A DNA stretch of 64,000 nucleotides, from the NCBI GenBank assembly GCA_023419605.1, contig JAEZXR010000119.1, positions 1 through 64,000 on the forward strand, given 5' to 3'. The stretch comes from Bacillota bacterium. Lineage in GTDB: Bacteria; Bacillota; Clostridia; Acetivibrionales; JAEZXR01. Positions within the stretch are counted from its first letter, which is position 1, and the number at the start of each line of letters is the position of its first letter. The notes under the pieces are model-generated. The model was not told where the DNA came from and ran no database searches. It saw only the letters and a program-made list of their open reading frames with translations. A program made the translations under genes and the position numbers. Positions 2,438 through 39,251 of this stretch are shown in pieces.

Positions 2438-2495
2438 ATATATTCTACACATACTACGAGAGAGACACGCAGGAATGGAGAAAGTAGGTGATTGG

Positions 2496-20129: not shown

Positions 20130-20211
20130 ACTTTGCACATTTATAAGTTTATAAAAAGTATAGATTTGGATGATAGAATCTCCCATGAAATGAATTATGG
20201 GAGGTTTTTTT

Positions 20212-20892: not shown

Positions 20893-23360
20893 GGAACTAT
20901 CTGGGGACCGGTATACGGACCTTACAGCGTCAAAAGCTGTTGACTGTGCTGACACTCCTTGCAATTGTACTGTCGACGGCTTTGGTAGCTGTGCTGGGTA
21001 TTTTATCCGGCAGCATCCGGCAGGCTGAAGTCGCACAGGCGGAAAAGTTGGCAGGAAGACACCATGTTCAGTTTAATAATCTTACAGAGGAACAGGTTGA
21101 TCGGATCATGAAGGACCCAAGTATTGAGACAGTCGGTATCAGAAGAGGTATAGGTACGGCGAAACTGCCTGCAGGCAACAAGGATCTGTTTCTCATGGAA
21201 ATGGATGCTAGGGCCTTCCAATTAATGAATGTACCGTTGCTAAAGGGGGAATATCCGATGCAGCCCGGGGAGGTAGTGCTGGAACAACGAATACTGGAAA
21301 GTCTGGGGTTGCCGCTGGAGGTGGGACAGGTTATCACACTTGCTCTCCATCTCGAGAGCCCTGCGAATACAGGAACGGAAAGCACCGATAAAGAACTGAA
21401 GGTCACAGGCATTTTAGAGAATCATCCTGCGGGAGTTTTTACAGCCTGCGGCTTTATGGGCACGGGTACGGCACAGGCATGGCTGCCGGTGGAAGCAGTG
21501 CAGAAACATGCCGTTGTGCGTTTCAATGACGGTGTTAATCCTGTTGAGGCTGTAAAAAAACTGGCGGTTGAGATGGAAATAGGGGAGAAAAATATACATT
21601 TTAATGATTGGCTGGTTGCTGCATTGGGGTATGACAGTGAGAAAAAAAGTGAGGAAGGAATGGGCAGCCTATCCGTGACCATAGGAACGCTGGTACTGCT
21701 GGCAGCATTTCTTGTTATCTACAACATTTTTCAAGTGTCGGTGGTACAGCGGACGCAGCAATTTGGCATGCTGCGCGCTGTTGGGGCTTCACCCGGGCAG
21801 GTGCGCCGGCTGGTACTGTTTGAAGCCGCAATTTTGTGCGCCATAGGGATACCGCTGGGACTGCTGCTGGGTGCCGCCGCGTCCCGTTTTGTAGTGGGAA
21901 GTGTAAGCGCCGTTGTTAGTCCTGAACTGTTCCGGGTGGAGAATACCGCACAAGCGGCGAGGGTGATACACGACAATATGCGAATCCCTCTTTCCGCCTT
22001 GCTGGGTGCTTCAGCCATGGGACTTGCTACAACGCTCCTATCGGCGTTGTTCCCGGCAATTCTGGCTTCCCGTGTGCCCCCTACCGTCGCCATATCGGGA
22101 CTGATAGGCGGCGGTATTACCATGAAGCATCGTACCCCTGGAAAACAGGTTAAAAACATCCTGTGGCACAATGCGCGCCTGAATTTATCCAGAAACCGGG
22201 TGCGAACGTACCTTACGGTGCTTTCTCTTGCCATGGCGGTTGTAACCTTTGTGGCGTTGGGCTCCTTTGTCCAATCCTTTAACACCATGGAGCAATTGGC
22301 GAAGCAGATGGACAGCGATTATTCCATAACCGCCAGTGAATCTCCCATCATGCTGGAGGATGCTGCAAAGGGGATAAGTTTATCCGATGTGGAGGAACTG
22401 GAGGCGCTTCCGGGAGTAGAGCGTATACGTACTGCAAGGTATGGCTATGATGGAGAATATGTCCGGCTGCACCGGGAAGCTGCGGGACAAAATGGGGTGG
22501 ATGAAATATTTGCTTTCGATGAACAAACCTTGGCAGGAGTACTGGAGAAATTGGGAAGCAAGGCACCCAGCGTGGAGGAAATGAGGGAAAAATCCTGGGT
22601 ATTGGTAGAAAAATCCCGCAACTACGAGAATCTTGACCTGCCGGAACCGAAAATACCGAATCCCGGCGATGAAATCGAAATCTACGGACATCCCTTTACA
22701 GTGGCCGGTATTGTAGAGGATATGAATTTTATTCTTCCGCAGAGCGGCTTATGGGGAAGGAACATCCTGATACATGAGCAGCAATACCTTCCCTTGGCAG
22801 GACGTAACGACATGCAGAAGGTGGACGTATTTTTGCGGCCGGATGTATCCAAGGAGGATATTCAGCGGTTGAAAGAAGCTGCGGAACGCATGAAGTCGTA
22901 TATACCCACCCTTAGGGTAACTTCCTTTGAAGAGGCAAGGGACGAGATTGAGAAAGGAATTCGGGGTATCCGCAGCCTGGGGTATGGTTTGATTATTCTG
23001 GTTTCTCTTATCGGAGCACTGAATATTGTTAATACCACCGTAACCAGCCTGCGTACCCGAAGCAGGGAGCTGGGCACACTTCGCGCCATTGGAATGAGCA
23101 CAGAGCAGATGAGAGCCATGCTGCTGCTGGAGGGCCTGATGTACGGGCTGCGGGCGCTGCTCTTCGGTTTACCTGCCGGAATCGGGATGTCCGCGCTGGT
23201 GATGCTGGCCACCAAGGGGCTTGAAAACTGGCAGCCTCCGCTTGTACAACTTGTAATAGCGGCTGTTTGTGCACTGGTATTGTGTTTGCTGGCGACACTG
23301 CTTCCTGTCGGAAGGCTTACCAGAGTCAGCATTGTGGAAAGCCTTGGGAGGATTGATTGA
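20889..23360 (+). CDS. ABC transporter permease with duplicated FtsX domains (peptide-antibiotic exporter type)
   Basis: 823 aa; two blocks of 4 TM helices, each with an FtsX signature, separated by large extracytoplasmic domains. Translationally coupled to the ATPase (ATGA overlap). Confidence 0.85.
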   Translation: MRNYLGTGIRTLQRQKLLTVLTLLAIVLSTALVAVLGILSGSIRQAEVAQAEKLAGRHHVQFNNLTEEQVDRIMKDPSIETVGIRRGIGTAKLPAGNKDLFLMEMDARAFQLMNVPLLKGEYPMQPGEVVLEQRILESLGLPLEVGQVITLALHLESPANTGTESTDKELKVTGILENHPAGVFTACGFMGTGTAQAWLPVEAVQKHAVVRFNDGVNPVEAVKKLAVEMEIGEKNIHFNDWLVAALGYDSEKKSEEGMGSLSVTIGTLVLLAAFLVIYNIFQVSVVQRTQQFGMLRAVGASPGQVRRLVLFEAAILCAIGIPLGLLLGAAASRFVVGSVSAVVSPELFRVENTAQAARVIHDNMRIPLSALLGASAMGLATTLLSALFPAILASRVPPTVAISGLIGGGITMKHRTPGKQVKNILWHNARLNLSRNRVRTYLTVLSLAMAVVTFVALGSFVQSFNTMEQLAKQMDSDYSITASESPIMLEDAAKGISLSDVEELEALPGVERIRTARYGYDGEYVRLHREAAGQNGVDEIFAFDEQTLAGVLEKLGSKAPSVEEMREKSWVLVEKSRNYENLDLPEPKIPNPGDEIEIYGHPFTVAGIVEDMNFILPQSGLWGRNILIHEQQYLPLAGRNDMQKVDVFLRPDVSKEDIQRLKEAAERMKSYIPTLRVTSFEEARDEIEKGIRGIRSLGYGLIILVSLIGALNIVNTTVTSLRTRSRELGTLRAIGMSTEQMRAMLLLEGLMYGLRALLFGLPAGIGMSALVMLATKGLENWQPPLVQLVIAAVCALVLCLLATLLPVGRLTRVSIVESLGRID

Positions 23361-25838: not shown

Positions 25839-26140
25839 GTAAGGAAATTGTGGTTTTTAATTTTCTTACCATGGGGAGTGCAGAGGGGATTCACCTCACC
25901 GGTTTAGGGGGATGCTCAGGAGCATTAGCTCTGTCGAAGGGGGAAGTAGTTCCCCCTTGCGAAGAACAAAGTGCGATAGCATTTCGTTCTGGGTTGTGGG
26001 AATAGAATTACAGATCGGAGAAGACTCTTTTACCGCATCCGGATTTATGATAGAATTTTCTTAGGCTTCTTTGTTACACTTCATATATTCTTATAGATGA
26101 AAGACATTAATGGCAAACTAAACCAGAGGGGCTATGCAAA

Positions 26141-26386
26141 ATGTTCATTGACCAGGATAAGAACCTGAACGCAGTACGGTTTATTGTGTTTTGCGGAATA
26201 ATGGCGATTATCCTAATGGCCGGAGCACTCTATGCGATCCATATTGAACAGAAGAATGAGCTTCGTTCCGCTCAGCCGGCAAGTACCACGGGACCCGGTA
26301 ATCCCGGAGGCCAGGATTCCCAAAACGAAAAACAGAAGGAGACGCAGCAGAGGGGACTTATAGCAGCGACACCCAAGATACCCTAA
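26141..26386 (+). CDS. Small single-pass membrane protein (81 aa), hypothetical
   Basis: One TM helix (FIVFCGIMAIILMAGALYAI) followed by a low-complexity tail. Weak RBS. Confidence 0.3.
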   Translation: MFIDQDKNLNAVRFIVFCGIMAIILMAGALYAIHIEQKNELRSAQPASTTGPGNPGGQDSQNEKQKETQQRGLIAATPKIP

Positions 26387-26435
26387 GAGTAGAGAGAAAG
26401 CAGCTTACCAGGATAATGCAGAAAATATTTCCAAT

Positions 26436-26482
26436 GAAGCAGGAAAGCCTGCCATTCCGTCGAATGGCAGGCTTTCCTGCTT
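26436..26482. terminator. Bidirectional terminator (GCAGGAAAGCCTGCCATTC..GAATGGCAGGCTTTCCTGC)
   Basis: 19-bp perfect inverted repeat between convergent genes. Confidence 0.75.
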
Positions 26483-26496
26483 TACTACAGTTTAAC

Positions 26497-26829
26497 TTAC
26501 AGCATTTTTCCTATGGTATCCAATAATTCATCCACTACGTCATTATCCCCGGACTGAACTCTTTCGATTACGCAACCTCGCATATGGCTTTCCAGAACAA
26601 GCTTGCTGATCGATTTCATGGCGGCTTGAACAGATGAAATCTGGTTTAGGATGTCGTCACAGTAAGCATCTTTTTCAATCATCCCTTTAATGCCGCGCAC
26701 CTGTCCTTCGACACGGTTAAGACGGACAATCAGGGAGTTTTTTAATTTATCCGGCCTGTTCTTTGTCCGTGGGCTTGACACACTGTGGCAGTCCATGGAG
26801 TGTTCACAGGTTATTTTTTCATCGTCCAT
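26497..26829 (-). CDS. csoR: CsoR/RcnR-family metal-sensing repressor (copper-sensitive operon repressor)
   Basis: LIVRLNRVEGQVRGIKGMIEKDAYCDDIL ... SHMRGC matches the CsoR signature (RxxRIEGQxRGIxxMxExxxYCxDxL..H..C), including the metal ligands. Confidence 0.8.
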   Translation of the reverse strand: MDDEKITCEHSMDCHSVSSPRTKNRPDKLKNSLIVRLNRVEGQVRGIKGMIEKDAYCDDILNQISSVQAAMKSISKLVLESHMRGCVIERVQSGDNDVVDELLDTIGKML

Positions 26830-26864
26830 ATTTCTTCCTCCAAGCGTTTGTAGGTGATCTTCTC

Positions 26865-27080
26865 TTATAAGCTTACCACAGAAACCACGTCATAGCCAGC
26901 TTCTTCCACGGCGTTTTTCAATTCCGAATCTGCCACATCCCTTCCCAGGGTCACAATGGCATTTTTACCTTTCAGGTCCACCGTTACTTCCGCAACTCCG
27001 TTTACTTCCCGCAGGGCTTCCTCTACGTGCTTTACGCAATGTCCACAGCTCATGCCTTCAATATTGATTTGTTTTTTCAT
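26865..27080 (-). CDS. copZ: Copper chaperone CopZ (HMA domain)
   Basis: 71 aa with a GMSCGHC metal-binding motif. GGAGG RBS; the start is MKKQ. Confidence 0.85.
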   Translation of the reverse strand: MKKQINIEGMSCGHCVKHVEEALREVNGVAEVTVDLKGKNAIVTLGRDVADSELKNAVEEAGYDVVSVVSL

Positions 27081-27133
27081 AAGAAATACCTCCATTTTTT
27101 ATCTCACATAAATTATAGCATACCCATTTCATA

Positions 27134-27805
27134 TTATTTCAGGTCAAAAGGCTTTAAAAATTTATCCACCTGTTCCGGTTTGCCGTTCTTGTCCTTCACC
27201 TCAACCTTTGCAAAAGCCCAGCCTTCTACCTTATCCGGTTTGACCCCCGCATCGATAAAGGGTTGGGGATTCAGCACAAATACGATGTCTTTATCGTTTT
27301 TAGCCATATCCTTTGCCCATTCAAACATGTTTCCATTACCCAGCGCGACCCCATAATGGTCCAGCTTTTCATGGTATCCGACGACATCGCGGTGAGTCTT
27401 AACCAATTGTTTAAAGGAATCCAAAGGTTTCGCTTCACCGGTATAGGTGAACTTATCCTGTCCGAATTCTGCCTGAATGACGATTTTGTCGCCTGCCACC
27501 ATGCCCTTGGGCAATTTGTTTACATCCAGCCCGGCAGAAACGAAGGGCTTAGCGTCAAATTCCAGCATTGCATCCGGTTTGCCGGCACTGCTGAAATCCT
27601 TACTCCAGAGGAATCGCTCTCCGGTAGGGGAGGTCAAAGCCCAGCCATTGTTTGTATCATCGGATTTGACTTTATCCGGAATAGTATTGAGGACGGCTTC
27701 AAAGGACGTAGACGCTACTTTGCCCACTACATCGGTGGACTGGCAGGCGGAAAATGTAAATGCTACCGCCAGGGAAAGGACTGCCAGAATTACTTTGCTT
27801 CTCAT
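27134..27805 (-). CDS. Lipoprotein of unknown function in the cop operon
   Basis: Signal peptide plus lipobox (LAVAFTFSAC), then a Lys/Asp-rich soluble domain. Lies between copA and copZ. Confidence 0.7.
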   Translation of the reverse strand: MRSKVILAVLSLAVAFTFSACQSTDVVGKVASTSFEAVLNTIPDKVKSDDTNNGWALTSPTGERFLWSKDFSSAGKPDAMLEFDAKPFVSAGLDVNKLPKGMVAGDKIVIQAEFGQDKFTYTGEAKPLDSFKQLVKTHRDVVGYHEKLDHYGVALGNGNMFEWAKDMAKNDKDIVFVLNPQPFIDAGVKPDKVEGWAFAKVEVKDKNGKPEQVDKFLKPFDLK

Positions 27806-27829
27806 TGTTTAAACCTCCGTAAATTTATA

Positions 27830-30295
27830 TTATTTGTAGGGCTTGAAACCTTTTAAACGCAGCGCATTGGTCAAAACGGATACTGAGCTTAAGGACATGG
27901 CAGCGGCTGCAAATATCGGATTCAGCTTGGGTCCGCCAAAGGCGTACAGCAGTCCGGCAGCAATGGGAATGCCTGCTACATTATAGCCGAAGGCCCAGAA
28001 GAGATTCTGCTTGATATTCCGTATGGTGCTCTTGCTGAGCTGGATCGCCGTAGGCACATCCATCAAATCGCTCCGCATCAGTACGATGTCGGCAGATTCC
28101 ATGGCCACGTCCGTACCGGAACCGATGGCGATTCCGATATCCGCTTGTGCAAGGGCAGGGGCATCGTTGATGCCGTCTCCCACCATAGCTACTTTCTTTC
28201 CTTCTGCTTGCAGTTTCTTCACTTCATTGGCCTTATCCTGGGGCAACACCTCTGCCAGGATACGGTCGATACCCACCTGTTTGGCGATGGCTTCGGCAGT
28301 CCGGCGGTTGTCTCCCGTGATCATGGCTACTTCGATTCCCATGGAATGGAGCTTTTTGATGGCGTTGGCACTGCTTTCCTTCACTACGTCGGCGACAGCA
28401 ATGATTCCGGCCAACTGGTCCTGTATCGCAATATACATGGGTGTTTTTCCTTCGGAAGCGAGCCGGTCCGACTCCTTTTCCAGGGGCTCCAGTGCTACGT
28501 TCCGGTCCAGCATAAGCTTGCGGTTCCCCAGAAGAATCGGGTTGTTATCGATCTGAACCTCAATTCCGTGACCCGGTATGGCGGTAAACTTCTCCACCTG
28601 AATGAGTTCCAGTGCTTCCTTTTCCGCCCCTCTTACGATGGCTTCACCCAAAGGATGCTCCGAGCCCTTTTCCGCAGAGGCTGCGATCAGAAGAAGCCGT
28701 TGACGGTCAACTCCATTTGCAGTGAGTATATCTGTCACTTCCGGTTTTCCTTCGGTGATGGTGCCTGTTTTATCAAATACAATGGTATTGATTTTGTGCG
28801 TGCTTTCCAAAGCTTCGCCGCCTTTGATCAGTATGCCGTATTCCGCGCCCTTGCCGGTACCTACCATGATGGCGGTGGGCGTAGCCAGACCCAGTGCACA
28901 GGGGCAGGCGATAACCAGAACTGCGATGAAGATGGTGAGGGAAAATACGGTGGATTCACCGCTCAAATACCATGCCAGTGCAGCAACCACTGCGATAGCG
29001 AAAACAATGGGGACAAAATATCCGGATACGATATCCGCCATCTGGGCGATAGGGGCTTTTGAACCCTGGGCATCTTCCACCAGCTTGATAATCTGCGCCA
29101 GCGCCGTATCACTTCCTACCTTTGTCGCCTTAAATTTGATGGAGCCGTTTTTATTGATGCTTGCTCCGATGACCTTCGCTCCGACACTTTTTTCTACAGG
29201 GATGCTTTCTCCCGTCAGCATGGATTCGTCCACGGAAGTGTGGCCCTCGATGACTTCGCCATCCACGGGGATTTTTTCGCCCGGTTTTACCAGAATTATG
29301 TCGCCGACTTCCACTTCCTCAATGGGGATCTCAATTTCCTTGCCGTCCTGAAGGATGGTAGCCGTTTTGGGGGCCAATCCCATTAACTTCTTTATAGCTT
29401 CGGAGGTCTTTCCTTTTGAAACAGCCTCCAGTGATTTTCCCAGGAGTATGAGGGTGATAATAACGCCTGCTGTTTCAAAGTACAAATCGTTGACATAGAT
29501 AAAGTCGCCGATGAAGATCCTGTAAGTGGAATACAAGCTGTATAACACGGCGGCGGAGGTTCCCATGGCAATGAGGGAATCCATGTTGGGGCTTCTTCGC
29601 CAAATGGCTTTGAAACCAATGGAATAGAATTTGTTTCCTGCGATGATTACGGGAGTTACCAGAGCAATCTCCACCAGAGCATAGAGCAGAGGGAACTGCA
29701 TCGGGTTCAGCCACTGGGGAATGGGCCACTTCAGCCACCAGATCATGGCACCCATGGCGACATACAGCAGGGGGACTGTGAATACCGCAGAAACGATGAA
29801 CTTGGTCCACAGCGTGCGTATCTCTTTCTCTTTTCTTATTTTATCCTCATCAACGGAAGCTTTGCTCTCAATCTCCAGCGCTTTATAACCGGCCTTTGAA
29901 ATGGCTTGCTTGATTTCGGAAATCCTCACTTTGGAAGGATCGTATTTTACTGTAGCTTTTTCGGTGGCAAAGTTCACGGATGCATGGGCGACCCCTTCCA
30001 TCTTGCCTACCACCTTTTCGATCCTGCTGGCACAGGCCGCGCAGGTCATACCCTGGATGGGCATGGTAATTTCCTTTTCGACCTTCTCTTCCACGGCCTC
30101 ATAACCGGCCTTGGCAACGGCTGTCTTAATATCGGCAACAGAAACCTTCGACTCATCAAAGGAAATATTTAATTTTTCCGTAGAGAAATTGACGCTGGCT
30201 TCCGTGACGCCTTCCAATTTCTTTACCGCTCTCTCCGCTGCCTTGGCGCAAGCCGCACAAGTCATGCCGAGGATTTTTATATTTTCAGTTTTCAT
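27830..30295 (-). CDS. copA: Copper-translocating P1B-type ATPase CopA with two N-terminal HMA domains
   Basis: Two GMTCAACA motifs, CPC ([11 protein letters not shown]), [18 protein letters not shown] and the 8-TM pattern. Confidence 0.92.
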
Positions 30296-30315
30296 TTTTT
30301 CACCTTCCTGCCAGA

Positions 30316-30347
30316 TTATTAGGGTATATACTATACCCCCCTACCCT
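30316..30347. promoter_or_regulatory. Candidate CsoR operator: GC-tract pseudo-palindrome GGGTATA-TAC-TATACCC(CCCC)TACCC
   Basis: Perfect 7-bp inverted repeat with a C7 tract, immediately upstream of the copA start. It resembles known CsoR operators (TACCC..GGGGTA type). Confidence 0.45.
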
Positions 30348-30478
30348 ATATGACACTTATGATACTCCTTCGATGTAGTTTTGTCAAGGGGGCTTTTTTA
30401 AATACGCAGGATATTGCCTTAGTCCCGTAAAATCGGGAAGCTTTTGCACCTTGTTGAAAATAACATATCAATTAATTA

Positions 30479-30495
30479 TGAAGATCTTATGGAGA
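30479..30495. promoter_or_regulatory. Inverted copy of the TTCATAAGATCTTCA box (TATGAAGATCTTATGGA)
   Basis: The reverse complement is TCCATAAGATCTTCATA, matching the box consensus at 14 of 17 positions. Confidence 0.35.
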
Positions 30496-30542
30496 TTTTT
30501 AAAAGTACAGAGTAAATATTTTAAAATAAATTATGGAGATTT

Positions 30543-30560
30543 CTTCATAAGATCTTCACA
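30543..30560 (+). promoter_or_regulatory. Box 1: CTTCATAAGATCTTCACA (11-bp-spaced direct repeat CTTCAYA, candidate OmpR-family regulator site)
   Basis: Identical 18-mer recurs at 32853-32870; a one-mismatch copy is at 32234-32251. Each lies 40-60 bp upstream of a gene start. Confidence 0.5.
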
Positions 30561-30606
30561 ATTTTACTGTAAAATTTATACAAACTGTTTTGAAGGGGCG
30601 TGTACA

Positions 30607-31404
30607 ATGTTTGATCAAAGGAATAATAACCCGCGAGCAGTCAAATATCTTGCTTTATGTGGAATTGTGGTGGTACTACTGGCTATTGTGGGCCTCTATG
30701 GCATGCGCACGAAAGGGCAGAAGGAGAACGGCACACTTCAACCGGTGAGTATTGCAGCAACGGGTAATGCGGAAACCGATACTTCCCAAAGGAAGGGACA
30801 GAATGACATACCGCAGACTCAGCCCATTCCGAAGGATATCAATGGCAGCATTCCATCGGCTGCAAATGAAGTGAAGCCGGCAGAGACGGAGAAACCGAAG
30901 CCGGAGGTGGAACCAACTCCCCAAAGTGTGGAAAAGAACACGGAGCCTCCCGCCAGTACTCCAAAGAACGAGGTTGGAACCGCGGAGGCAAAACTGCAAA
31001 CCGAACCGCCTAAAGTCCAGTCCACTGTAAAACCTATGGATATAGCAATTAAAGTTCCCAAAGCCGAGGTAACGGCCCAGGCAAAGTTCTACCCCTGTAA
31101 AATCGATAATATAACGATGGAAGTCATTGCTGTAAAGGCCAGCGACGGAAGCATCCGGACTGCGCTGAATACCTGCCAGGTTTGCTTTGATTCCGGTAAA
31201 GGGTATTATGTTCAGACCGGTGAATACCTGGTATGCCAAAATTGTAAAAATAAATTCCATATCGATCAGGTAGAGAAGGTGAAAGGCGGGTGTAACCCTG
31301 TGCCGGTTTTACAGGAGGATAAAACCGATCTCGGAGACTCTATCGCAATAGCAAAGGACTTTTTGGCGAGTCAAAAGGAATACTTTAAAAAGTGGAAGAA
31401 ATAA
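30607..31404 (+). CDS. Membrane-anchored protein with C-terminal Cys4 (CxxC..CxxC) domain, DUF2318-like; paralog A
   Basis: TM helix, Pro/Glu/Lys-rich linker, then a domain FYPCK..ALNTCQVCFDSGKGYYVQTGEYLVCQNCKNKFHIDQVEKVKGGCNPVPV. RBS GAAGGGG. Confidence 0.75.
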   Translation: MFDQRNNNPRAVKYLALCGIVVVLLAIVGLYGMRTKGQKENGTLQPVSIAATGNAETDTSQRKGQNDIPQTQPIPKDINGSIPSAANEVKPAETEKPKPEVEPTPQSVEKNTEPPASTPKNEVGTAEAKLQTEPPKVQSTVKPMDIAIKVPKAEVTAQAKFYPCKIDNITMEVIAVKASDGSIRTALNTCQVCFDSGKGYYVQTGEYLVCQNCKNKFHIDQVEKVKGGCNPVPVLQEDKTDLGDSIAIAKDFLASQKEYFKKWKK

Positions 31405-31425
31405 TAAAGTTTCGGGGGGAAGGGT

Positions 31426-32187
31426 ATGAAACGATTGTTAGTATTTATCTTGATTTGGGGCATGGTTATCCATTCCTTCATGATGCAGGTGGCAGCGCAG
31501 CCGTTGTCACAGAGTGAAATCAAGGTACTGTTTAATGGAAACCCGCTTGAGTTTGATGTTAAACCCAGTGTAAAGGATGGCAGGACATTGGTTCCCTTTA
31601 GGAAGATCCTGGAGGCCTTTGGCGCCGAAGTGAAATGGGATGCCGAACAGCAGGTGGTATCAGCTAAAAAAGGCTCCACGGAAATGTATTTGAAAATCGG
31701 AATTGACTATGCTTACGTAAACGGCTATGAGGTGAATCTGGATGTGGCGCCTGAAACGCTGGAAGGAAGGACCTTGGTTCCCTTGCGCTTCATCAGCGAA
31801 AGCCTGGGAGCAGAGGTTGGCTGGGATGAAGCCGCCGGAACTGTGGCGATTTTATACAATAGCACCGTATATAAATTGGGACAAGCAGGTACATATAAAG
31901 ACATAACGTTTTCCATTGAAAAAGTAGAGGCCCAGACGGGCAATGGAACGCTAAAGGTTTCGGGGAAAATAAATTCCATCCCGCAAAAGCTGGTTGTAGA
32001 GGTAGCGGATGATAACGGATATATACTCCCGGGTGAAATGAAGGTCATAAAGAAGGAAGGAGAGATGTATGCCGTAGAGACGGAAATATATTTACCTTCC
32101 TGTCATAATTTTGTGGGAAAATACCTATCGGTAAAAGTTCAAAACCAGGAACAAAAACTTATAAAAATCGCAGAATACGAGCTGTAA
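31426..32187 (+). CDS. Secreted protein with tandem copper-amine-oxidase N-terminal-type (stalk) domains
   Basis: Signal peptide, then two repeats of DGRTLVPFRKILEAFGAEVKWD / GRTLVPLRFISESLGAEVGWD typical of Cu_amine_oxidN1 domains. Confidence 0.7.
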   Translation: MKRLLVFILIWGMVIHSFMMQVAAQPLSQSEIKVLFNGNPLEFDVKPSVKDGRTLVPFRKILEAFGAEVKWDAEQQVVSAKKGSTEMYLKIGIDYAYVNGYEVNLDVAPETLEGRTLVPLRFISESLGAEVGWDEAAGTVAILYNSTVYKLGQAGTYKDITFSIEKVEAQTGNGTLKVSGKINSIPQKLVVEVADDNGYILPGEMKVIKKEGEMYAVETEIYLPSCHNFVGKYLSVKVQNQEQKLIKIAEYEL

Positions 32188-32233
32188 GAGATCAAAAGGA
32201 TTTTCATGATTCTAAGTAAAAATTTTCGTTTGC

Positions 32234-32251
32234 CTTCATAAAATCTTCACA
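32234..32251 (+). promoter_or_regulatory. Box 2: CTTCATAAAATCTTCACA
   Basis: One mismatch relative to boxes 1 and 3; lies 40 bp upstream of the 32291 start. Confidence 0.5.
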
Positions 32252-32290
32252 AGTACATGCTATCATGGAAACAAATCAATAGAGGGTGGT

Positions 32291-32809
32291 ATGAAAATGA
32301 GTAAAGGAAAGCAGCGTAGTAAAAATGGACAGCCGATGAATAAGAACAGCGTTATCCTTATTGGCATTATAGCCGTGTTGGTGGTTGGCTTTTTTGTGTT
32401 TAAAGCAGTGACAAAGGAGGAAAAGACTGTCGCATCCGCTGGAGGTGACCTGGTAATACCCAAGAGTGAAATTACCGAAACTGCAAAGTTCTACCCCTAT
32501 AAAGCAGGAAATACAGCCATGGAAGTAGTAGCGGTGAAAGCAAAGGATGGAACCATCCGGACTGCATTGAATACCTGCCAGGTGTGCAACAATTCCGGAA
32601 AGGGATATTATAAGCAGCAGGGAGAAGCCCTGGTCTGCCAGAATTGCGGAAATGTGTTTAAAATGGACCAGGTGGAGAAAATAAAAGGCGGCTGTAACCC
32701 GGTGCCTGTTACAACAGACGATAAAACCGACGACGGAGCAAACATTACCATCCCCAAAGCTTTCCTGGAGCAGAATAAAGATTTGTTCAAGACCTGGAAA
32801 CGTCAATGA
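32291..32809 (+). CDS. Membrane-anchored Cys4-domain protein, paralog B of 30607-31404
   Basis: The same domain, ALNTCQVCNNSGKGYYKQQGEALVCQNCGNVFKMDQVEKIKGGCNPVPV, is more than 60% identical to paralog A. It follows an N-terminal TM helix. Confidence 0.8.
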   Translation: MKMSKGKQRSKNGQPMNKNSVILIGIIAVLVVGFFVFKAVTKEEKTVASAGGDLVIPKSEITETAKFYPYKAGNTAMEVVAVKAKDGTIRTALNTCQVCNNSGKGYYKQQGEALVCQNCGNVFKMDQVEKIKGGCNPVPVTTDDKTDDGANITIPKAFLEQNKDLFKTWKRQ

Positions 32810-32822
32810 TAGGATGCCTGTA

Positions 32823-32852
32823 AGAACGAGCTATTAAGCCATAGCTCGTTTT
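32823..32852 (+). terminator. Hairpin terminator (AACGAGCTAT-TAAGCC-ATAGCTCGTT + TTTC)
   Basis: 10-bp perfect stem. Confidence 0.65.
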
Positions 32853-32870
32853 CTTCATAAGATCTTCACA
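32853..32870 (+). promoter_or_regulatory. Box 3: CTTCATAAGATCTTCACA
   Basis: Identical to box 1; lies 57 bp upstream of the 32927 start. Confidence 0.5.
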
Positions 32871-32926
32871 TTCTTCTGGTATTCTGTTTTCTATGAAAGA
32901 ACGACAAGTTGTGCAGGAGGTATGCA

Positions 32927-34771
32927 ATGGAGCAGAAAGTAGTACGCAAAGTCCTTCAGGTTGAAGGTATGACATGTGCGAGCTGCGAAATGAGAATTGA
33001 GAATGCTGTGAAAAAATTGGCGGGAGTACAAGAGGTCAAAGCAATCTTCAGCAGTTCCAATGTGTATATAACGTATGATGTAAATAGTACAGGGTTGGAT
33101 CAAATCATTGAAACTATCGAAAAACTGGACTATAAAGTGAAGCAGAACCGACCTGAAAGACAGGGTACGGTAGGCACTGGCGCCGGAAAACCGCCCGGGG
33201 ACAAATTAACCATGGACCAGCTGCTGGGAATCGGCATTATTCTGCTTGCATTATTTATGGTGATCCGTCATACGGTCGGCTTTAACTTTATACCGGAAGT
33301 GGATGCCTCCATGGGATACGGGATACTGTTCGTCATCGGATTGCTTACCTCCCTGCACTGTATTGCCATGTGTGGAGGAATTAACCTTTCCCAATGTATT
33401 TCCTACAATGGGGGCAGCCCTGAAGCAGGTAAATTCGGAAAGCTGACTCCTAGTTTGTTGTATAACTCCGGGAGAGTGGTATCCTATACGGTCATTGGCG
33501 GTATTGTAGGTGCCCTGGGCTCCGTCATCAGTTTTTCCGGAGCGGCCAAAGGAACTGTAGCCATCATCTCCGGTGTGTTTATGGTGATTATGGGACTGAA
33601 TATGCTGAATATATTCCCGTGGCTTAGAAAACTGAATCCGAGAATGCCCCGGATCTTCGGCAATAAAATACACAGTAACAATGGTCGGTACGGTCCGTTT
33701 TATGTTGGCCTTCTCAACGGCTTGATGCCTTGCGGTCCGCTGCAGGCCATGCAGATTTATGCTTTAGGCACGGGAAGCTTCGCGGCAGGTGCCTTATCCA
33801 TGTTCATGTTCAGCCTGGGTACAGTCCCCTTGATGTTTGGCTTTGGCGCCATCAGCTCGGTTTTAAGCAGAAAATTCACCCACAAGATGTTGAAGGTAAG
33901 TGCGGCATTGGTCATGGTACTGGGGTTCGTTATGGTAGGCAGGGGGCTGTCCTTGTCAGGTGTCAATATAGCCTTTGCTTCTCCGGCAGCGGGAGCATCG
34001 GGAAATGTAGCCCGGATCGAAGGAAATGTGCAAGTTGTCAGCACTCGGATTGAGTCGGGACGCTATTCTCCCATCGTCGTTCAAAAAGGAATTCCGGTCC
34101 GGTGGACGATACAGGCGGACAAAAACAACCTCAATGGCTGCAACAACAGAATTAATATTTTGGAGTATAATATAAGAGACAAGGCGTTGGTGCCGGGAGA
34201 GACTGTGATCGAATTTACGCCTGACAAAGAAGGGAATTTTGTTTACAGCTGCTGGATGGGGATGATCCGCAGCAGTATAAAGGTGGTGCCGGATATTAGC
34301 AGTGTTTCCAAAGGCGAACTCCAGGATTCAAAAGGACCCGCTCTTGCAGGTACAGAGAGTGATGGTGCCATACCTACGGAGGAAGCTGCGGTTGCAAAGG
34401 TCACAAATGGGATACAATATGTAAGTATCGATGTGAAGGATGACAGCTTTTCACCGGCCATTGTGGTGGTACAAAAAGGAGTAGAGGCTCGGTGGGTGGT
34501 CAATGGTGTAGAATTGAATGTACACAATAGTACGATGGTTTTCCCGGAATTAAATTCAAAAGTCGGTTTGAAGAAGGGAGAAAATCAACTGCAATTTACG
34601 CCGGACTACGATTTCTCCTTCCAGTGCGGCACCGGGCTGCTCAATGGCTATGTGAAAGTGGTAGAGGATATAAATAAAATTGATATGAATGCCATTAAGG
34701 CGGAAGTGAAGGGCTATGTACCGCCAAGAACAGGAAGCCTGGGCGGTGGAAGCGGCATGAGCTGCCATTAG
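32927..34771 (+). CDS. HMA-domain / DsbD_2-type (UreH-like) transmembrane domain / tandem cupredoxin-like domain fusion protein
   Basis: N-terminal GMTCASC HMA motif. TM core with Cys pairs SLHCIAMCGG and MPCGPLQAMQ. Two C-terminal beta-rich domains, each with a single Cys (YSCWMGM and FQCGTGL), look cupredoxin-like. Confidence 0.75.
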   Translation: MEQKVVRKVLQVEGMTCASCEMRIENAVKKLAGVQEVKAIFSSSNVYITYDVNSTGLDQIIETIEKLDYKVKQNRPERQGTVGTGAGKPPGDKLTMDQLLGIGIILLALFMVIRHTVGFNFIPEVDASMGYGILFVIGLLTSLHCIAMCGGINLSQCISYNGGSPEAGKFGKLTPSLLYNSGRVVSYTVIGGIVGALGSVISFSGAAKGTVAIISGVFMVIMGLNMLNIFPWLRKLNPRMPRIFGNKIHSNNGRYGPFYVGLLNGLMPCGPLQAMQIYALGTGSFAAGALSMFMFSLGTVPLMFGFGAISSVLSRKFTHKMLKVSAALVMVLGFVMVGRGLSLSGVNIAFASPAAGASGNVARIEGNVQVVSTRIESGRYSPIVVQKGIPVRWTIQADKNNLNGCNNRINILEYNIRDKALVPGETVIEFTPDKEGNFVYSCWMGMIRSSIKVVPDISSVSKGELQDSKGPALAGTESDGAIPTEEAAVAKVTNGIQYVSIDVKDDSFSPAIVVVQKGVEARWVVNGVELNVHNSTMVFPELNSKVGLKKGENQLQFTPDYDFSFQCGTGLLNGYVKVVEDINKIDMNAIKAEVKGYVPPRTGSLGGGSGMSCH

Positions 34772-34875
34772 TAAGGCGCTGTAAAATAACAGAAAGAAAC
34801 TCCTTGTGATTTGCGTTGGTGAAAGGGCTTTGTCCAAGAGCTTTTTCACCAACTTTTCATATGGTATACTATAGA

Positions 34876-34949
34876 TAACGAACTTTAAACCTTAATCCAT
34901 CGGAGCCGAAACTGCCGGCAGTTGAGATGGGGTTCGGCGGAGTAAATTC
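34876..34949 (+). ncRNA. Structured 5'-leader element, copy 2 (TAACGAACTT..ATCGGAGCCGAAAC..CCGGCAGTT..GGTTCGGCGGAGTAAATTC)
   Basis: Shares blocks TAACGAACTT, ATCGGAGCCGAAA, GGCAGTT and TTCGGCGGAGTAAATTC, in the same order, with copy 1. An extended -10 (TGGTATACT) ends about 6 nt upstream. Confidence 0.45.
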
Positions 34950-35040
34950 TAATGAATATCCTTTCTACGGTTATATATGGATAAGGGCAACGGTCTGTTT
35001 TAATACCTGTGTAAGCATGTGGATGTACGGAGGGTGGAAG

Positions 35041-35742
35041 ATGGCAAACAGCAGCAAGAGAATACTGGTGGTAGATGATGAGGTGAAGATTGTCGAAGTG
35101 GTGAAATCCTACCTGGAGAACAGTGGGTATTCCGTTTATGAAGCATATAACGGGAAGGATGCACTGGAACGCTTTGAAAAAGTCAGCCCTGCGCTGGTGA
35201 TATTGGACCTGATGCTTCCGGATATAACCGGCAAGGAGGTTTGCAGAGCCATACGGAAAAAGTCAGGGGTGCCTATCATCATGCTTACGGCAAAGACCGA
35301 GGAAGAGCATATTCTGGAGGGACTTACCCTGGGCGCGGATGATTATATCACAAAGCCTTTCAGTCCCAGACAACTGGTGGCGCGCGTGGAAGCCGTATTG
35401 AGAAGGTCGGGGGGGACTTCGGTCCCGCATTCGAATGTACTGTCCTTCGGTAATAATGAGCTGACCATCGACACTGTAAAGTTTGAAGTGAAAAAAGAGG
35501 GGGCCGTGGTGAATTTAACTCCCAATGAATACAAGATTCTGATGACCATGGCGAAATATCCGGACAAGACCTTTACGAGGGAAGAACTGGTATTTCTGGT
35601 GCTGGGGGAAGATTATGACGGTTATGACCGCACCATCGATACCCATATAAAAAATTTACGGCAAAAGATGGAAAACGATCCGAAGAACCCTAAGTATATT
35701 CTTACTATCTATGGGGTGGGATACCGGTTTGGTGGTGAATGA
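35041..35742 (+). CDS. OmpR-family response regulator
   Basis: ILVVDDE, LVILDLMLPD and IMLTAK motifs plus a winged-helix C-terminus (LTIYGVGYRF). RBS GGAGGGTGGAAG. Confidence 0.9.
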   Translation: MANSSKRILVVDDEVKIVEVVKSYLENSGYSVYEAYNGKDALERFEKVSPALVILDLMLPDITGKEVCRAIRKKSGVPIIMLTAKTEEEHILEGLTLGADDYITKPFSPRQLVARVEAVLRRSGGTSVPHSNVLSFGNNELTIDTVKFEVKKEGAVVNLTPNEYKILMTMAKYPDKTFTREELVFLVLGEDYDGYDRTIDTHIKNLRQKMENDPKNPKYILTIYGVGYRFGGE

Positions 35743-35743
35743 G

Positions 35744-37138
35744 ATGAAATCCAACCTGAGAACAAAGCTATCCTTAACGTATATGTTTGTAGCGCTGGTC
35801 TGTGTATTTTTAATCAGCATTCTCACCAATGTATTTTTGGATAAGTACTTCAAGGATTATGTCAAACGAAATCAGGAGAACAAGAATAAGGAAATCGTAG
35901 CATGGATCAACCAGCAATATAAACCCGGGAACAAGTGGGATGCAGAGGCAATAGAGAATATCGGCATTACCACCCTGGAGCAGGGAATGATTATCCGTGT
36001 AACGGATTCTACAGGCACGGTGATATGGGATGCCATGGTGCACAACAATGGTCTGTGCCAGCAGATGATCGCTCACATGGCCCAAAACATGAGCAGCCGG
36101 TATCCGAACTGGAAGGGAGGCTATATAGAGAACCAGTATCCTGTCCTGCACGACCTGCGGGAGGTAGGGGTAGTGGATATCGGCTATTATGGTCCGTATT
36201 ACTTCACTGACAGCGATCTGGCATTTATCACAGCACTAAACCAACTGTTAATCCTGGTCGGTGTATTTTCACTTCTTCTGGCGCTATTCATCGGTTCCTT
36301 CATGGCAAAAAGACTGAGTACTCCGATTTCAAGAGTAATCAATACCGCACAGATGATTTCCCGGGGATACTATGGAGACCGGCTGCGCGAAGAGTCCGAT
36401 ACGAAGGAAATTGCACAGCTTACGGGAACCATTAATAACCTTGCGGAAACCCTGGAGATACAGGAGACACTCCGGAAAAGGCTTACGGCGGATGTGGCCC
36501 ACGAGCTGAGGACACCCCTTGCGACGCTTCAGAGCCATATGGAGGCTATGATCGATGGAATCTGGAAGCCGGAACCCGAGCGGCTGAAAAGCTGCCATGA
36601 AGAAATACTGCGGATTAACCGGATGGTAGGGGATCTGGAAAAGCTGGCCAGATACGAAAGTGAAAATTTACTTCTGAATAAGACGGAATTTAGCATGACA
36701 GAGCTGGTGCAGCACATTATACAAAATTTTGAGACTGACTTTATGAATAAAGGGATTCAATTGCAGTTTTCGGGGGATGAGGGAATTGCATTTGCAGATC
36801 GGGATAAAATCAGTCAGGTTATTATAAACCTGTTGTCTAATGCCTTGAAATACACTTCTCAGGGAGGCTCGGTAGAGGTCGGCATCAAAAGTGCTCCGGA
36901 TCATATTGAGGTTTCCGTTAAGGATACAGGAAACGGAATTCCGCCCGAGGATTTGCCTCATATCTTTGAGCGCTTTTACCGTGCGGATAAATCAAGAAAC
37001 AGGCTGACAGGCGGTGCCGGCATTGGGCTTACCATTGCGAAGGCAATTGTGGAAGCCCACAGGGGGAGTATCCAGGTGAAAAGCAGGCCCGGTGAGGGAA
37101 CGGAATTTATTGTGACAATTCCGAAACAGGCAGGGTAG
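35744..37138 (+). CDS. Sensor histidine kinase (PhoR/ResE-like)
   Basis: Two TM helices, HAMP domain, H-box HELRTPLATL, N-box LLSNALKYT, G-boxes DTGNGIP and GGAGIGLTIA. The ATG lies 1 nt after the regulator stop. Confidence 0.85.
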   Translation: MKSNLRTKLSLTYMFVALVCVFLISILTNVFLDKYFKDYVKRNQENKNKEIVAWINQQYKPGNKWDAEAIENIGITTLEQGMIIRVTDSTGTVIWDAMVHNNGLCQQMIAHMAQNMSSRYPNWKGGYIENQYPVLHDLREVGVVDIGYYGPYYFTDSDLAFITALNQLLILVGVFSLLLALFIGSFMAKRLSTPISRVINTAQMISRGYYGDRLREESDTKEIAQLTGTINNLAETLEIQETLRKRLTADVAHELRTPLATLQSHMEAMIDGIWKPEPERLKSCHEEILRINRMVGDLEKLARYESENLLLNKTEFSMTELVQHIIQNFETDFMNKGIQLQFSGDEGIAFADRDKISQVIINLLSNALKYTSQGGSVEVGIKSAPDHIEVSVKDTGNGIPPEDLPHIFERFYRADKSRNRLTGGAGIGLTIAKAIVEAHRGSIQVKSRPGEGTEFIVTIPKQAG

Positions 37139-37207
37139 AGGCCTGATCTGAAATTGTTGCAACTGGACTCCAGGAATTTATTGATAAGAGCGTATGGAGG
37201 GATTCCA

Positions 37208-38167
37208 ATGAAAATAGTGGTTTTGGATGGTTTTGCGTTAAATCCGGGAGACCTTACCTGGGAGAAGCTGGAGGGTATGGGGGAGCTCACTGTATATGAC
37301 CGGACCCCGGCGGAAAAAATCCTGGAACGAATCGGGGAGGCCGAAATTATTTATACCAATAAGACTCCCCTGACAAGGGAAATTCTTGAAAAGGCGGCCA
37401 ATATAAAGTTCATTGGGATACTGGCTACGGGTTACAATGTTGTTGATGTTGCTGCCGCGAAGGACAAAAGCATCGTCGTTACCAATATTCCTGCTTATGG
37501 TACGGCGGCGGTAGCGCAGTTTACCTTCGCACTGCTTTTAGAGCTGTGCCATCATGTCTGGGCGCATAATGAGGAAGTAAAAAAAGGTGCATGGACCCGT
37601 AGTCCGGATTTTTGTTTTTGGATTTATCCTCAAACTGAGCTTGCAGGGAAAACCATGGGGATTATTGGGTTTGGAAAGATCGGTCAGGCCGTGGGTAAAA
37701 TCGCGCAAGCCTTCGGAATGAGGATTCTGGCTTATGCCCGACACCCGGAGCCTGCCTTGGAGAACGATAGGATGCGATATGCCGGTCTGGAAGAGCTGCT
37801 GGAGAAATCCGACGTGATAAGCCTTCACTGCCCGCTCTCCGAGAGTACGCAAGGCATTATCAATCGAGAGACCTTGTCGAAAATGAAGGCGGGTGTATTG
37901 CTGCTGAATACCTCCAGGGGGCCTTTGATCGTCGAGGAGGATCTGGCAGAAGCCTTGAATTCCGGAAGGGTTGCAGGGGCGGCAGTAGATGTTCTGGCAG
38001 TGGAACCGGCTAAAATGGAAAATCCCTTGCTAACGGCAAAAAATTGCATTATCACACCGCATATCGCATGGGCGCCCAGGGAGTCCAGAGAGCGGCTGCT
38101 AGCGATTGCAGCAGATAATCTGGCACAGTTTTTGAAGGGGAATCCGGTAAATGTGGTGAATAGATGA
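37208..38167 (+). CDS. D-isomer-specific 2-hydroxyacid dehydrogenase (glycerate dehydrogenase/HprA-like)
   Basis: NAD-binding motif GIIGFGKIGQAV and catalytic Arg/Glu/His arrangement (..NTSRG..E..L.....ITPHIAW). Confidence 0.85.
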   Translation: MKIVVLDGFALNPGDLTWEKLEGMGELTVYDRTPAEKILERIGEAEIIYTNKTPLTREILEKAANIKFIGILATGYNVVDVAAAKDKSIVVTNIPAYGTAAVAQFTFALLLELCHHVWAHNEEVKKGAWTRSPDFCFWIYPQTELAGKTMGIIGFGKIGQAVGKIAQAFGMRILAYARHPEPALENDRMRYAGLEELLEKSDVISLHCPLSESTQGIINRETLSKMKAGVLLLNTSRGPLIVEEDLAEALNSGRVAGAAVDVLAVEPAKMENPLLTAKNCIITPHIAWAPRESRERLLAIAADNLAQFLKGNPVNVVNR

Positions 38168-38239
38168 TCGTGTTAATCTGCAAAAAGCACATAAAACGCA
38201 TATTGACAGGGTTTGCGTTATATGCTAAAATCAGATCAA

Positions 38240-38376
38240 TAAAGGGGAGTAGCTTATAAGCTATAAAGTCAACAAACGGCGCGCTGAACTGCGTCTGGCT
38301 TTATACTCCATACGGAAAGCAAGACCTTTAACGAGATCCAATTCATTTGGATTTACGTTAAAGGTCTTTTTATTTT
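38240..38376 (+). ncRNA. Mn(2+) riboswitch (yybP-ykoY family) with terminator-type expression platform
   Basis: Hallmark AAAGGGGAGTAGC 5' block and CTCCATACGGAAAGCAAGACCTTTAACGAGA 3' block. A terminator hairpin (AAGACCTTTAAC..GTTAAAGGTCTTTTTATTTT) follows. Upstream of a TerC/YkoY-family gene, the classic context. Confidence 0.7.
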
Positions 38377-38411
38377 CCCTGAAAACTATATTATTATCGG
38401 AGGTATATTGA

Positions 38412-39251
38412 GTGTCGACAAAAAAAGCATTATCGTGGTTGGGATTCTGGGTAGGGCTGGCACTGCTGTTTAATGCAGGGGTCTATTTCTTTATGGGACC
38501 ACAGAAGGCCCTGGAATTTTTAGGCGGCTACATCATCGAACAAAGCTTAAGCTTGGATAACCTGTTCTTGTTTCTCTTGATATTCGGGAGCTTTGGTATT
38601 CCGGCGCAATATCAAAGGCGGGTACTGAACTACGGAATCATAGGTGCTATCGTTCTCCGTCTGATTTTTGTGGTTCTGGGTGTTTCCATCGTAAACAGAT
38701 TCCATTGGATTCTGTACATATTTGGATTTATACTGATTCTCAGCGGTATCAAGATGATGCTTAAAAATGAAGAGCATCAAAACTTTAAGGACAATAAGCT
38801 GTTAAAGCTGCTGGGCAAGATCGTGCCGGTTTCCGATGAACTGGCGGGTGAAAAGTTTTTCGTACGTAAAAACAAAGTCCTGTATGCAACGCCCCTGTTT
38901 GCCATTCTGGTACTGGTAGAAGGTTCTGACCTGATTTTTGCCATCGATTCCATCCCTGCCATTTTTTCCATAACCACCGACCCTCTTATCGTGTATTGCT
39001 CCAATATTTTTGCCATTATGGGTCTGCGGAATTTATACTTCCTGATTGAAAAGCTTCATAGCTCCTTTGAATATGTAAAGTATGGAGTTGCTTTAATTCT
39101 TACCTTTACAGGAATAAAGCTCTCGCTTTTGATGTTCCACATAGAAATCCCCATTGTTTTGAGTATCCTTGTGATATTCTCTCTGCTGGCATTAAGCATG
39201 CTGGTATCCGTAGTGATGAAAAATAGTTCGAAAGTGAAAGTGACAGAGTAA
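38412..39251 (+). CDS. TerC-family integral membrane protein (YkoY/Alx-like, putative Mn/metal exporter)
   Basis: Polytopic membrane protein; EQSLSLDNLFLFLLIF and LVEGSDLIFAIDSIPA motifs are typical of TerC. GTG start with GGAGG RBS. Confidence 0.85.
   Translation: MSTKKALSWLGFWVGLALLFNAGVYFFMGPQKALEFLGGYIIEQSLSLDNLFLFLLIFGSFGIPAQYQRRVLNYGIIGAIVLRLIFVVLGVSIVNRFHWILYIFGFILILSGIKMMLKNEEHQNFKDNKLLKLLGKIVPVSDELAGEKFFVRKNKVLYATPLFAILVLVEGSDLIFAIDSIPAIFSITTDPLIVYCSNIFAIMGLRNLYFLIEKLHSSFEYVKYGVALILTFTGIKLSLLMFHIEIPIVLSILVIFSLLALSMLVSVVMKNSSKVKVTE

Follow-up and report, generated by a model that had tools for sequence, protein, structure and literature searches.

An 18 bp direct-repeat box at four promoters of a clostridial copper-type locus and its predicted recognition by an adjacent BaeR-like two-component system

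Introduction

The pho box, to which PhoB binds, consists of two 7 bp direct repeats with a 4 bp spacer; it replaces the −35 element and lies about 10 bp upstream of the −10 element. The BaeSR regulon comprises RND/MFS efflux pumps and spy, and the CusR box is a palindrome, not a direct repeat. Here, we describe an 18 bp direct-repeat box, CTTCATAAGATCTTCACA, that occurs four times in a 64,000 nt stretch of contig JAEZXR010000119.1 (assembly GCA_023419605.1; Bacillota bacterium, Clostridia). This whole stretch is referred to as the window, and box counts are given within it unless another set of loci is named. On the sequence comparisons reported below, the box is highly likely to be the binding site of the phosphorylated BaeR-like regulator encoded at 35041–35742, next to a sensor histidine kinase gene.

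With the pho box the element shares the 7+4+7 layout, the 11 bp period, the position relative to the −10 element and the lack of a −35 consensus. It differs in its half-site (CTTCAYA, compared with CTGTCAT in the pho box), the genes downstream are unrelated to phosphate and the regulator, at 206.6 bits on the PhoB profile, falls short of the equivalog cut-off (296.2). BaeSR is alike in its CTNCA-core half-site (TCTNCANAA; TTTTTCTCCATDATTGGC) and in a close recognition helix, and among NCBIfam profiles that of BaeS fits the kinase best, yet both proteins lie far below the curated cut-offs. BaeSR differs in that the host of the window is Gram-positive and the regulon in the window consists of copper-handling membrane proteins; neither RND/MFS pumps nor spy are among the genes downstream of the boxes (FtrD-like, Cu_amine_oxidN1, the fusion gene described below and copA). 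The CusRS/CopRS heavy-metal systems have a similar architecture and the same presumed signal, with scores below the family cut-offs.

CopRS of Corynebacterium glutamicum is likewise a copper-responsive OmpR-type pair beside a copper ATPase, but has a single site, placed far upstream (−266 to −285) of one of its two target promoters (PMC3140484). It acts on a multicopper oxidase and CopB, its host is an actinobacterium, and the comparison was made by site and not by protein orthology. The cre/blr tag of CreB is TTCAC-N6-TTCAC (PMC13214185); the box contains TTCAT-N6-TTCAC, the window has no creD gene and the regulator falls below the CreB cut-off (195.5 bits; cut-off 273). The CsoR regulon of Firmicutes (PMC4938975) has the same targets, HMA/DsbD_2, DUF2318/FtrD-like and CopA proteins, whereas here the FtrD-like and HMA-DsbD_2 genes stand under a two-component box and only copA appears to receive both inputs. 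In DsbRS of Pseudomonas aeruginosa, a copper-sensing pair with a critical sensor Cys activates an adjacent DsbD-type gene, but the motif is TAA-N7-TTAAT, the targets are true dsbDEG and the organism is a proteobacterium (bioRxiv 10.1101/2020.08.17.255257). Our literature searches returned no description of the regulator/kinase pair or of its box. The mechanism considered here, a response-regulator dimer on direct repeats at −35, is conventional and textbook.

Box copies and promoter architecture

A mismatch search of the window recovered both exact copies of the 18-mer and the one-mismatch copy that the initial annotation had listed (boxes 1, 3 and 2; Table 1). The inverted degenerate copy (box 4) also exists, with two mismatches, although its start is at 30477 and not at 30479 as first given. 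All four copies fall inside 2.4 kb, and no fifth match was found anywhere in the 64 kb when up to three mismatches were allowed. In 100 dinucleotide-preserving shuffles the matches averaged 0.07, and no shuffle reached four. On a weight matrix derived from orthologous loci the four sites score 25–31 bits, and none of 200 shuffles produced a site of at least 25 bits; both results bear out the earlier statement that a chance occurrence is very unlikely. The sequence of box 2 equals the cross-genome consensus without differences, and together with its −10 element it scores 40.0 bits. Box 4 is divergent from box 1 and faces the copA operon.

The half-sites of box 1, (T)CTTCATA and (T)CTTCACA, are direct repeats in the layout CTTCATA-AGAT-CTTCACA. 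Their 11 bp period, already noted in the initial annotation, is present in all four copies. From the end of the box to the −10 hexamer the gap is exactly 9 bp at each of the four boxes, the hexamer starting at the tenth base. TAnnnT is found in four of the four promoters (P1–P4, numbered as their boxes) and the TGn extension in three. At the −35 position the hexamer ATAAGA matches TTGACA at only three of six bases. Boxes 1, 2 and 3 end 46, 39 and 56 bp before the ATG start codons at 30607, 32291 and 32927, respectively, in agreement with the earlier placement of the direct copies 40–60 bp upstream of genes. The three box-driven units proposed at that stage are all present, at P1–P3, but the promoters number four, since the inverted copy has its own extended −10 element facing copA. 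With direct half-sites, a fixed placement at −35 and linked regulator and kinase genes, the box is predicted to be an OmpR/PhoB-type site at a class II promoter. An Rfam scan of 26000–38500 found no RNA family at the promoters or leaders.

Two weaker elements were seen beside these copies. A single inverted half-site, TCTCCATA, at 30532–30539 (−) scores 12.3 bits, on a par with the half-sites of box 4; it abuts box 1 head-to-head (TATGGAGA-tt-TCTTCATA) and is retained in the sister contig described below. A fifth box-like site, TTTCATATATTCTACACA, at 2434–2451 (+) scores 19.6 bits, where sites of at least 19 bits average 0.02 per shuffled window. It follows directly on a terminator, precedes an open reading frame of the Metalloenzyme superfamily (2496–3380) by about 45 bp and has no −10 element at the canonical spacing.

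Conservation of the box in related loci

Species-representative genomes were scanned with the HMA-DsbD_2-cupredoxin fusion protein encoded downstream of box 3, which yielded 80 loci (1.37 Mb; 44–70% identity; nearly all Clostridia/Bacillota), and boxes were sought in these loci using CTYCATAAWATCTHCAYA with at most two mismatches. The search returned 113 boxes with the consensus T-CTNCAYAAWA-TCTNCAYA. TAnnnT begins at the tenth base after the box in 105 of the 113, and in 65 TG is present too. The downstream open reading frame is the HMA-DsbD_2 fusion for 56 boxes, an FtrD-like gene for 23 and the regulator for six. The 28 remaining boxes (other or none) mostly precede small Met/His-rich or Cys-rich membrane proteins, or DUF6803 just after the kinase gene. 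Most of the 80 loci have a box where box 3 stands, upstream of their orthologue of the fusion gene. In the weight matrix, only the box, the TG and the −10 element are informative, the flanks adding almost nothing, and the consensus from 104 promoters has two equivalent half-sites. Judged by sequence, this pattern is the phylogenetic footprint of a promoter with a predicted activator site in place of the −35 element.

A sister contig (L203), the kinase of which is 95% identical to that of the window, keeps all four boxes, with box 1 unchanged. Within the boxes, substitutions are restricted to positions 9 and 17, where the consensus is degenerate; box 4, which reads CTCCATAAAATCTTCACA in this contig, differs only at these two tolerated positions. 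The P3 hexamer is TATCAT in the sister contig. In seven other genomes a DUF6803 membrane protein (about 160 amino acids) is box-driven, and in several its gene directly follows that of the kinase; the window itself has no DUF6803 gene.

A metagenome scan with the exact 18-mer gave at least 120 stretches with one match each. Among the matches listed, 89 of 120 have no −10 element at the right spacing, most of these being a few unrelated contexts, from abundant species, that recur, and only about ten are true HMA-DsbD_2, FtrD-like or regulator-pair loci. Because most metagenome matches lack the spaced −10 element and come from unrelated contexts, the 18-mer alone is not diagnostic at the scale of such a collection, and the scan did not serve to delimit the regulon.

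The regulator, the kinase and their link to the box

The best solved match of the DNA-binding domain of the regulator is BaeR (PDB entry 4b09). Its recognition helix, DRTIDTHIKNLRQKME, is close to that of Escherichia coli BaeR, DRTIDSHIKNLRRKLE (13 of 16 residues identical), and unlike that of WalR or MtrA; Asp56 is the predicted phospho-acceptor. The published BaeR consensus is TCTNCANAA, with the core CTNCA (PMC3799227), and by sequence match both half-sites of the box, TCTTCATAA and TCTTCACAA, fit it. The C. glutamicum CopR site verified by electrophoretic mobility-shift assay is TGAAGATTTnnTGAAGATTT (PMC3140484); its reverse complement has an ATCTTCA core and an 11 bp period, as does the box.

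The start codon of the kinase was taken from a database protein that is 100% identical (P0001). The kinase has two transmembrane helices and an extracytoplasmic sensor domain of about 135 amino acids, and a search with it returned 6,943 homologues at E ≤ 1e-30, including those of Caldicoprobacter, Clostridium thermosuccinogenes and Ruminiclostridium. The sensor domain carries the conserved motif WDAxxHNNGLCxQMxxHMxxNMSSRYPNW, in which the Cys is invariant, conservation of the His and Met residues is 90% or more, and His, Cys and Met lie on one helix. The model of this domain (predicted local distance difference test, pLDDT, 88) has a PAS/PDC-like fold.

An orthologous pair was counted where a regulator of at least 50% identity lay within 10 kb of the fusion gene. 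Such a regulator (53–76% identity) together with a kinase was present in 49 of the 80 loci. Six of these pairs have a box of their own, 36 follow directly, on the same strand, after a gene of a box-driven operon and seven show neither arrangement. Usually, then, the pair makes up the final cistrons of such an operon or has a box to itself. In two closer relatives of the window (L204 and L205; kinase identity 77% and 73%) a box stands upstream of the regulator gene. The proposal of the initial annotation that the adjacent OmpR/kinase pair targets the box regulon is thus supported by geometry, conservation, synteny and the BaeR likeness of helix and half-site, binding itself being a prediction.

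Several results weigh against this assignment or against a metal signal. Neither the regulator nor the kinase reaches a curated NCBIfam cut-off, the nearest families being BaeS/BaeR (BaeR NF007982, 211.1 bits, cut-off 380; BaeS_SmeS, 270.3 bits, cut-off 500; BaeS PRK10549, 245.5 bits, cut-off 603) and the heavy-metal families TIGR01386 and TIGR01387 (kinase 227.5 bits, cut-off 292.55; regulator 145 bits, cut-off 279.2). By curated thresholds, then, these proteins as judged from their profiles are not members of BaeSR, CusRS or PhoBR. The sensor domain had no match in a sequence search against solved structures, and the top Foldseek match of its model, the Ag-bound CusS sensor (PDB entry 5ku5), is weak (E = 3.5e-3, TM 0.42, 13% identity). 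Boxes are still carried by 22 of the 31 loci with no pair within 10 kb, and, since many loci with a box have no pair in the 10 kb fetched, the per-locus association of regulator presence with box presence does not reach significance (Fisher p = 0.08); in these 22 loci the pair could be encoded elsewhere in the genome. The half-site class TTCAY-N6-TTCAC is common to CreB, BaeR and CopR-type regulators. An identical 18-mer, flanked by a CreD-family gene and a divergent gene for an OmpR-type regulator (36% identical), occurs at 5400–5417 of an unrelated, higher-GC gut metagenome contig (L106), where it is evidently a cre tag. Since the half-site class is shared and the 18-mer serves a CreB-type locus, the box sequence alone cannot name its regulator. 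The regulator gene in the window is without a credible box, its best site (34844–34861) scoring 7.5 bits; this site was rejected for its score and for its wrong spacing, 3 bp from the −10 element. With no convincing box at this gene, there is no sign of direct autoregulation here.

The regulator gene carries its own extended −10 promoter. Directly after this −10 element its leader contains a 106 bp insertion, 34870–34975 (+), that is absent from the sister contig, has no unusual structure (z = −0.08) and matches no Rfam family.

Predicted box-driven genes and the copA operon

The gene map draws on Pfam and NCBIfam and, for independent gene calls, on identical contigs (including L201); the features are collected in Table 1. 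The two FtrD-like proteins are paralogues with about 62% identity over the C-terminal domain (tblastn). The gene of the Cu_amine_oxidN1-domain protein is probably co-transcribed from P1, because it starts 21 bp after the first FtrD-like gene. In the fusion protein a cytoplasmic HMA domain is followed by the DsbD_2 membrane domain and C-terminal cupredoxin-like domains.

Table 1. Positions in the window of the boxes, promoter elements, genes and terminators, with DUF6803-associated sites of other genomes
Feature	Position	Strand	Description
Box 1	30543–30560	+	CTTCATAAGATCTTCACA, exact; 26.9 bits on weight matrix
Box 2	32234–32251	+	CTTCATAAAATCTTCACA, one mismatch; 31.4 bits, window maximum
Box 3	32853–32870	+	CTTCATAAGATCTTCACA, exact; promoter of HMA-DsbD_2-cupredoxin gene
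Box 4	30477–30494	−	CTCCATAAGATCTTCATA, two mismatches, inverted; 25.3 bits, 36.1 bits with its −10
−10 of P1	30570–30575	+	TAAAAT, without TG extension; read from sequence
−10 of P2	32258–32266	+	TGcTATCAT, extended; read from sequence
−10 of P3	32877–32885	+	TGgTATTCT, extended; read from sequence
−10 of P4	30462–30470	−	TGaTATGTT, extended; after ATTAAT spacer; read from minus strand
FtrD-like (PF10080)	30607–31404	+	265 amino acids; membrane-anchored, Cys-rich, long Pro/Glu/Lys/Thr-rich linker; Pfam E = 5.7e-26; L201 gene call agrees
Cu_amine_oxidN1-domain protein	31426–32187	+	253 amino acids; secreted; Pfam E = 2e-40
Second FtrD-like (PF10080)	32291–32809	+	172 amino acids; Pfam E = 6.6e-29
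Terminator hairpin	32823–32852	+	12 bp stem, −14.7 kcal/mol, z-score −3.4; after second FtrD-like gene, U-tract enters box 3
HMA-DsbD_2-cupredoxin fusion	32927–34771	+	614 amino acids; Pfam HMA 1.4e-15, DsbD_2 5.5e-50, Cupredoxin_1 1.2e-07
Terminator	34815–34853	+	Strong, intrinsic; 17-pair stem then T-run; between fusion gene and regulator genes
OmpR/PhoB-family response regulator	35041–35742	+	233 amino acids; Pfam Response_reg and Trans_reg_C
Sensor histidine kinase	35744–37138	+	464 amino acids; HAMP, HisKA, HATPase_c (Pfam)
copA operon	26497–30295	−	copA, lipoprotein-like, CopZ-like, CsoR; Pfam and NCBIfam
copA, copper-type P1B ATPase	27830–30295	−	TIGR01511, 645 bits, cut-off 397
Lipoprotein-like protein	27134–27805	−	223 amino acids; no Pfam or NCBIfam family matched
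CopZ-like HMA protein	26865–27095	−	
csoR	26497–26829	−	
Second OmpR-type regulator	18277–18954	+	40% identity to 35041 regulator; recognition helix SDSAVTEHIKRLRTKL
DUF6803 sites (other genomes)	L008 16958, L015 17448, L016 8034, L019 15069, L023 10836, L027 18688, L040 16843		

The copA operon, which faces box 4, also has a proximal promoter of near-consensus sigma-70 type, TTGACA-17-TATCAT, at 30387–30359 (−) (promoter scan, 11 of 12). Within the stretch 30318–30390 (−), this promoter is followed by a G/C-tract inverted repeat (GGGTATA-tac-TATACCC and TAGGGGGGTATAG); the core of the repeat, TAGGGGGGTATAGTAT, is also kept upstream of copA in a related locus (L002). The repeat, at about 30318–30352, is probably the operator of the CsoR encoded at the end of the same operon. 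No such G/C-tract operator was seen at P1, P2 or P3 by reading the sequence, without a formal motif scan, and its only occurrence is at the proximal copA promoter. In the leader from P4 to that promoter, folding revealed no terminator and no structure more stable than shuffles, and in many related loci copA lies inside box-driven operons; the copA operon is a probable target of read-through from P4.

The gene of the 223-residue lipoprotein-like protein directly follows copA in more than 20 related loci (39–84% identity), and the protein is a candidate copper-associated protein.

Proposed mechanism and signal

In the mechanism that we propose, the kinase would sense extracytoplasmic metal and phosphorylate the regulator, which would bind as a head-to-tail dimer to the direct half-sites TCTNCAYA(A), 11 bp apart, at about −40 to −22 in place of a −35 element. 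In the manner of PhoB at the pho box, it would recruit RNA polymerase to P1–P4, where the −10 element is usually extended (TGnTAnnnT). P1 would then drive the first FtrD-like gene and the Cu_amine_oxidN1 gene, P2 the second FtrD-like gene and P3 the HMA-DsbD_2-cupredoxin gene. P4, divergent from P1, would drive the copA-lipoprotein-copZ-csoR operon, which would also be under a CsoR-controlled promoter. Expression of extracytoplasmic Cys-rich and cupredoxin-bearing membrane proteins would rise, and an outside sensor, the two-component system, would be combined with an inside sensor, CsoR.

The kinase probably senses extracytoplasmic copper or another soft metal, and we favour copper or silver as the signal with reasonable though not strong confidence. 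This reading is drawn mainly from the HMA domains, copper ATPase, CopZ and CsoR of the regulon. In gut Firmicutes, the CsoR meta-regulon includes the DsbD_2 and DUF2318 families (PMC4938975), and of the nine related loci in which both box and regulator pair are missing, four have csoR adjoining these genes instead. In the modelled PAS/PDC-like sensor domain, the best though weak fold match of which is the Ag-bound CusS sensor, the His/Cys/Met helix could bind metal. The widest form of the proposal is a Cu/Ag two-component system, widespread in Clostridia, that detects external metal with a sensor domain lacking a solved sequence relative (helix H-x4-C-x2-M-x2-HM-x3-M) and switches on an extracytoplasmic copper module (FtrD-like Cys4, HMA-DsbD_2-cupredoxin and, elsewhere, DUF6803), with a distal promoter added at a CsoR-controlled copA; we regard the case for this composite as evenly balanced. 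If it is true, copA would be the one gene at which the inputs from external and internal copper meet.

The analysis supplies a testable operator, T-CTNCAYAAWA-TCTNCAYA at 9 bp before an extended −10 element, and a defined predicted regulon for a two-component system common in anaerobic Clostridia. It would also link to metal stress several families of unknown function, namely FtrD-like/DUF2318, the HMA-DsbD_2-cupredoxin fusions, DUF6803 and the 223-residue lipoprotein. Some genomes place under CsoR the same effector genes that others place under a two-component system, a clean example of rewired regulation.

Alternative explanations

The regulator at 35041 is not, as had been stated, the only one of its type nearby: 12 kb from it stands the second OmpR-type regulator, accompanied by a kinase and an ABC/FtsX transporter of its own (ABC, ATP-binding cassette). 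The boxes might accordingly be regulatory and yet be bound by this regulator or by another of the OmpR family encoded elsewhere, the adjacency of 35041 being coincidental or a matter of cross-talk. Such a reading could draw on this second pair upstream, on the 22 related loci with boxes and no orthologous pair within 10 kb and on the CreB-type system that uses the identical 18-mer in another bacterium; we nevertheless give it only a slim chance. The regulator at 18277–18954 was judged an unlikely binder for its different recognition helix and its self-contained kinase and ABC ATPase/FtsX module, and no box-like site in its vicinity scores above 0.6 bits. Dozens of two-component systems are usual in a bacterial genome; the conserved synteny of the 35041 orthologue (49 of 80 loci) is, by our own estimate, very unlikely to arise by chance placement, and its helix matches BaeR, the consensus of which fits the half-site. 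That the 18-mers are leftovers of the FtrD-like gene duplication, or a small repeat element without a regulatory role, has practically no likelihood, even though the two FtrD-like genes are paralogues: the flanks are unrelated between copies, the identical copies (boxes 1 and 3) precede non-paralogous genes, and across 80 diverged loci only the box and the −10 element are conserved. A duplication or mobile-repeat origin was rejected on the unrelated flanks and the cross-genome conservation pattern.

Granting that the adjacent regulator binds the boxes, it could instead repress or roadblock the extended −10 promoters, with induction by release. Extended −10 promoters can work without a −35 element, the TGn extension is present in 65 of 113 promoters and the box covers the −35 region, all of which would suit a repressor. 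However, 105 of 113 sites keep their orientation and their spacing to the −10 element without a base pair of deviation, and the repeats invariably run in the direction of transcription, which fits polymerase contact and is not needed for simple occlusion. The poor −35 match of ATAAGA also speaks for an activator, and PhoB, BaeR and C. glutamicum CopR (PMC3140484), which have the same architecture, are activators; we consider repression very improbable and activation the better inference. A signal other than copper, be it envelope or thiol/disulfide stress of the BaeSR or CpxAR kind or Ag, Hg, Cd or Zn, with regulator and boxes acting as proposed, is the less probable case but one to be reckoned with. 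The closest named profile relatives, BaeS/BaeR, are envelope-stress sensors and homologues are labelled BaeS by the Joint Genome Institute; DsbD_2 suggests thiol–disulfide chemistry, mercury and zinc/cadmium models give scores, below cut-off, for the HMA domains as well, and the fold match of the sensor is a generic PAS/PDC one. Set against these are the copper-themed gene set in many genomes (a copA that passes TIGR01511, CopZ and CsoR), the occurrence of the same families in the CsoR meta-regulon elsewhere, the box-driven Met/His-rich small proteins of other genomes and the conserved His/Cys/Met helix of the sensor.

Other features of the window

The second two-component system forms part of a stretch at 18277–23360 (+), where it is followed by an ABC ATPase and an 823-residue FtsX-type permease; the layout resembles that of peptide-antibiotic sensing/detoxification modules. 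TerC genes are the classic partner of the yybP-ykoY riboswitch. Between a strong promoter (38203–38231) and a TerC-family gene (38412–39251), the stretch 38232–38389 (+) gave a weak match to the yybP-ykoY manganese riboswitch (21 bits compared with a gathering score of 45; E = 0.018). At 41897–46483 (+) a 1528-residue protein with FHA and FtsK/SpoIIIE ATPase domains is encoded, followed by YukD-like and WXG100 genes (L201 gene calls); by its predicted gene content, this region and that downstream is a type VII secretion locus.

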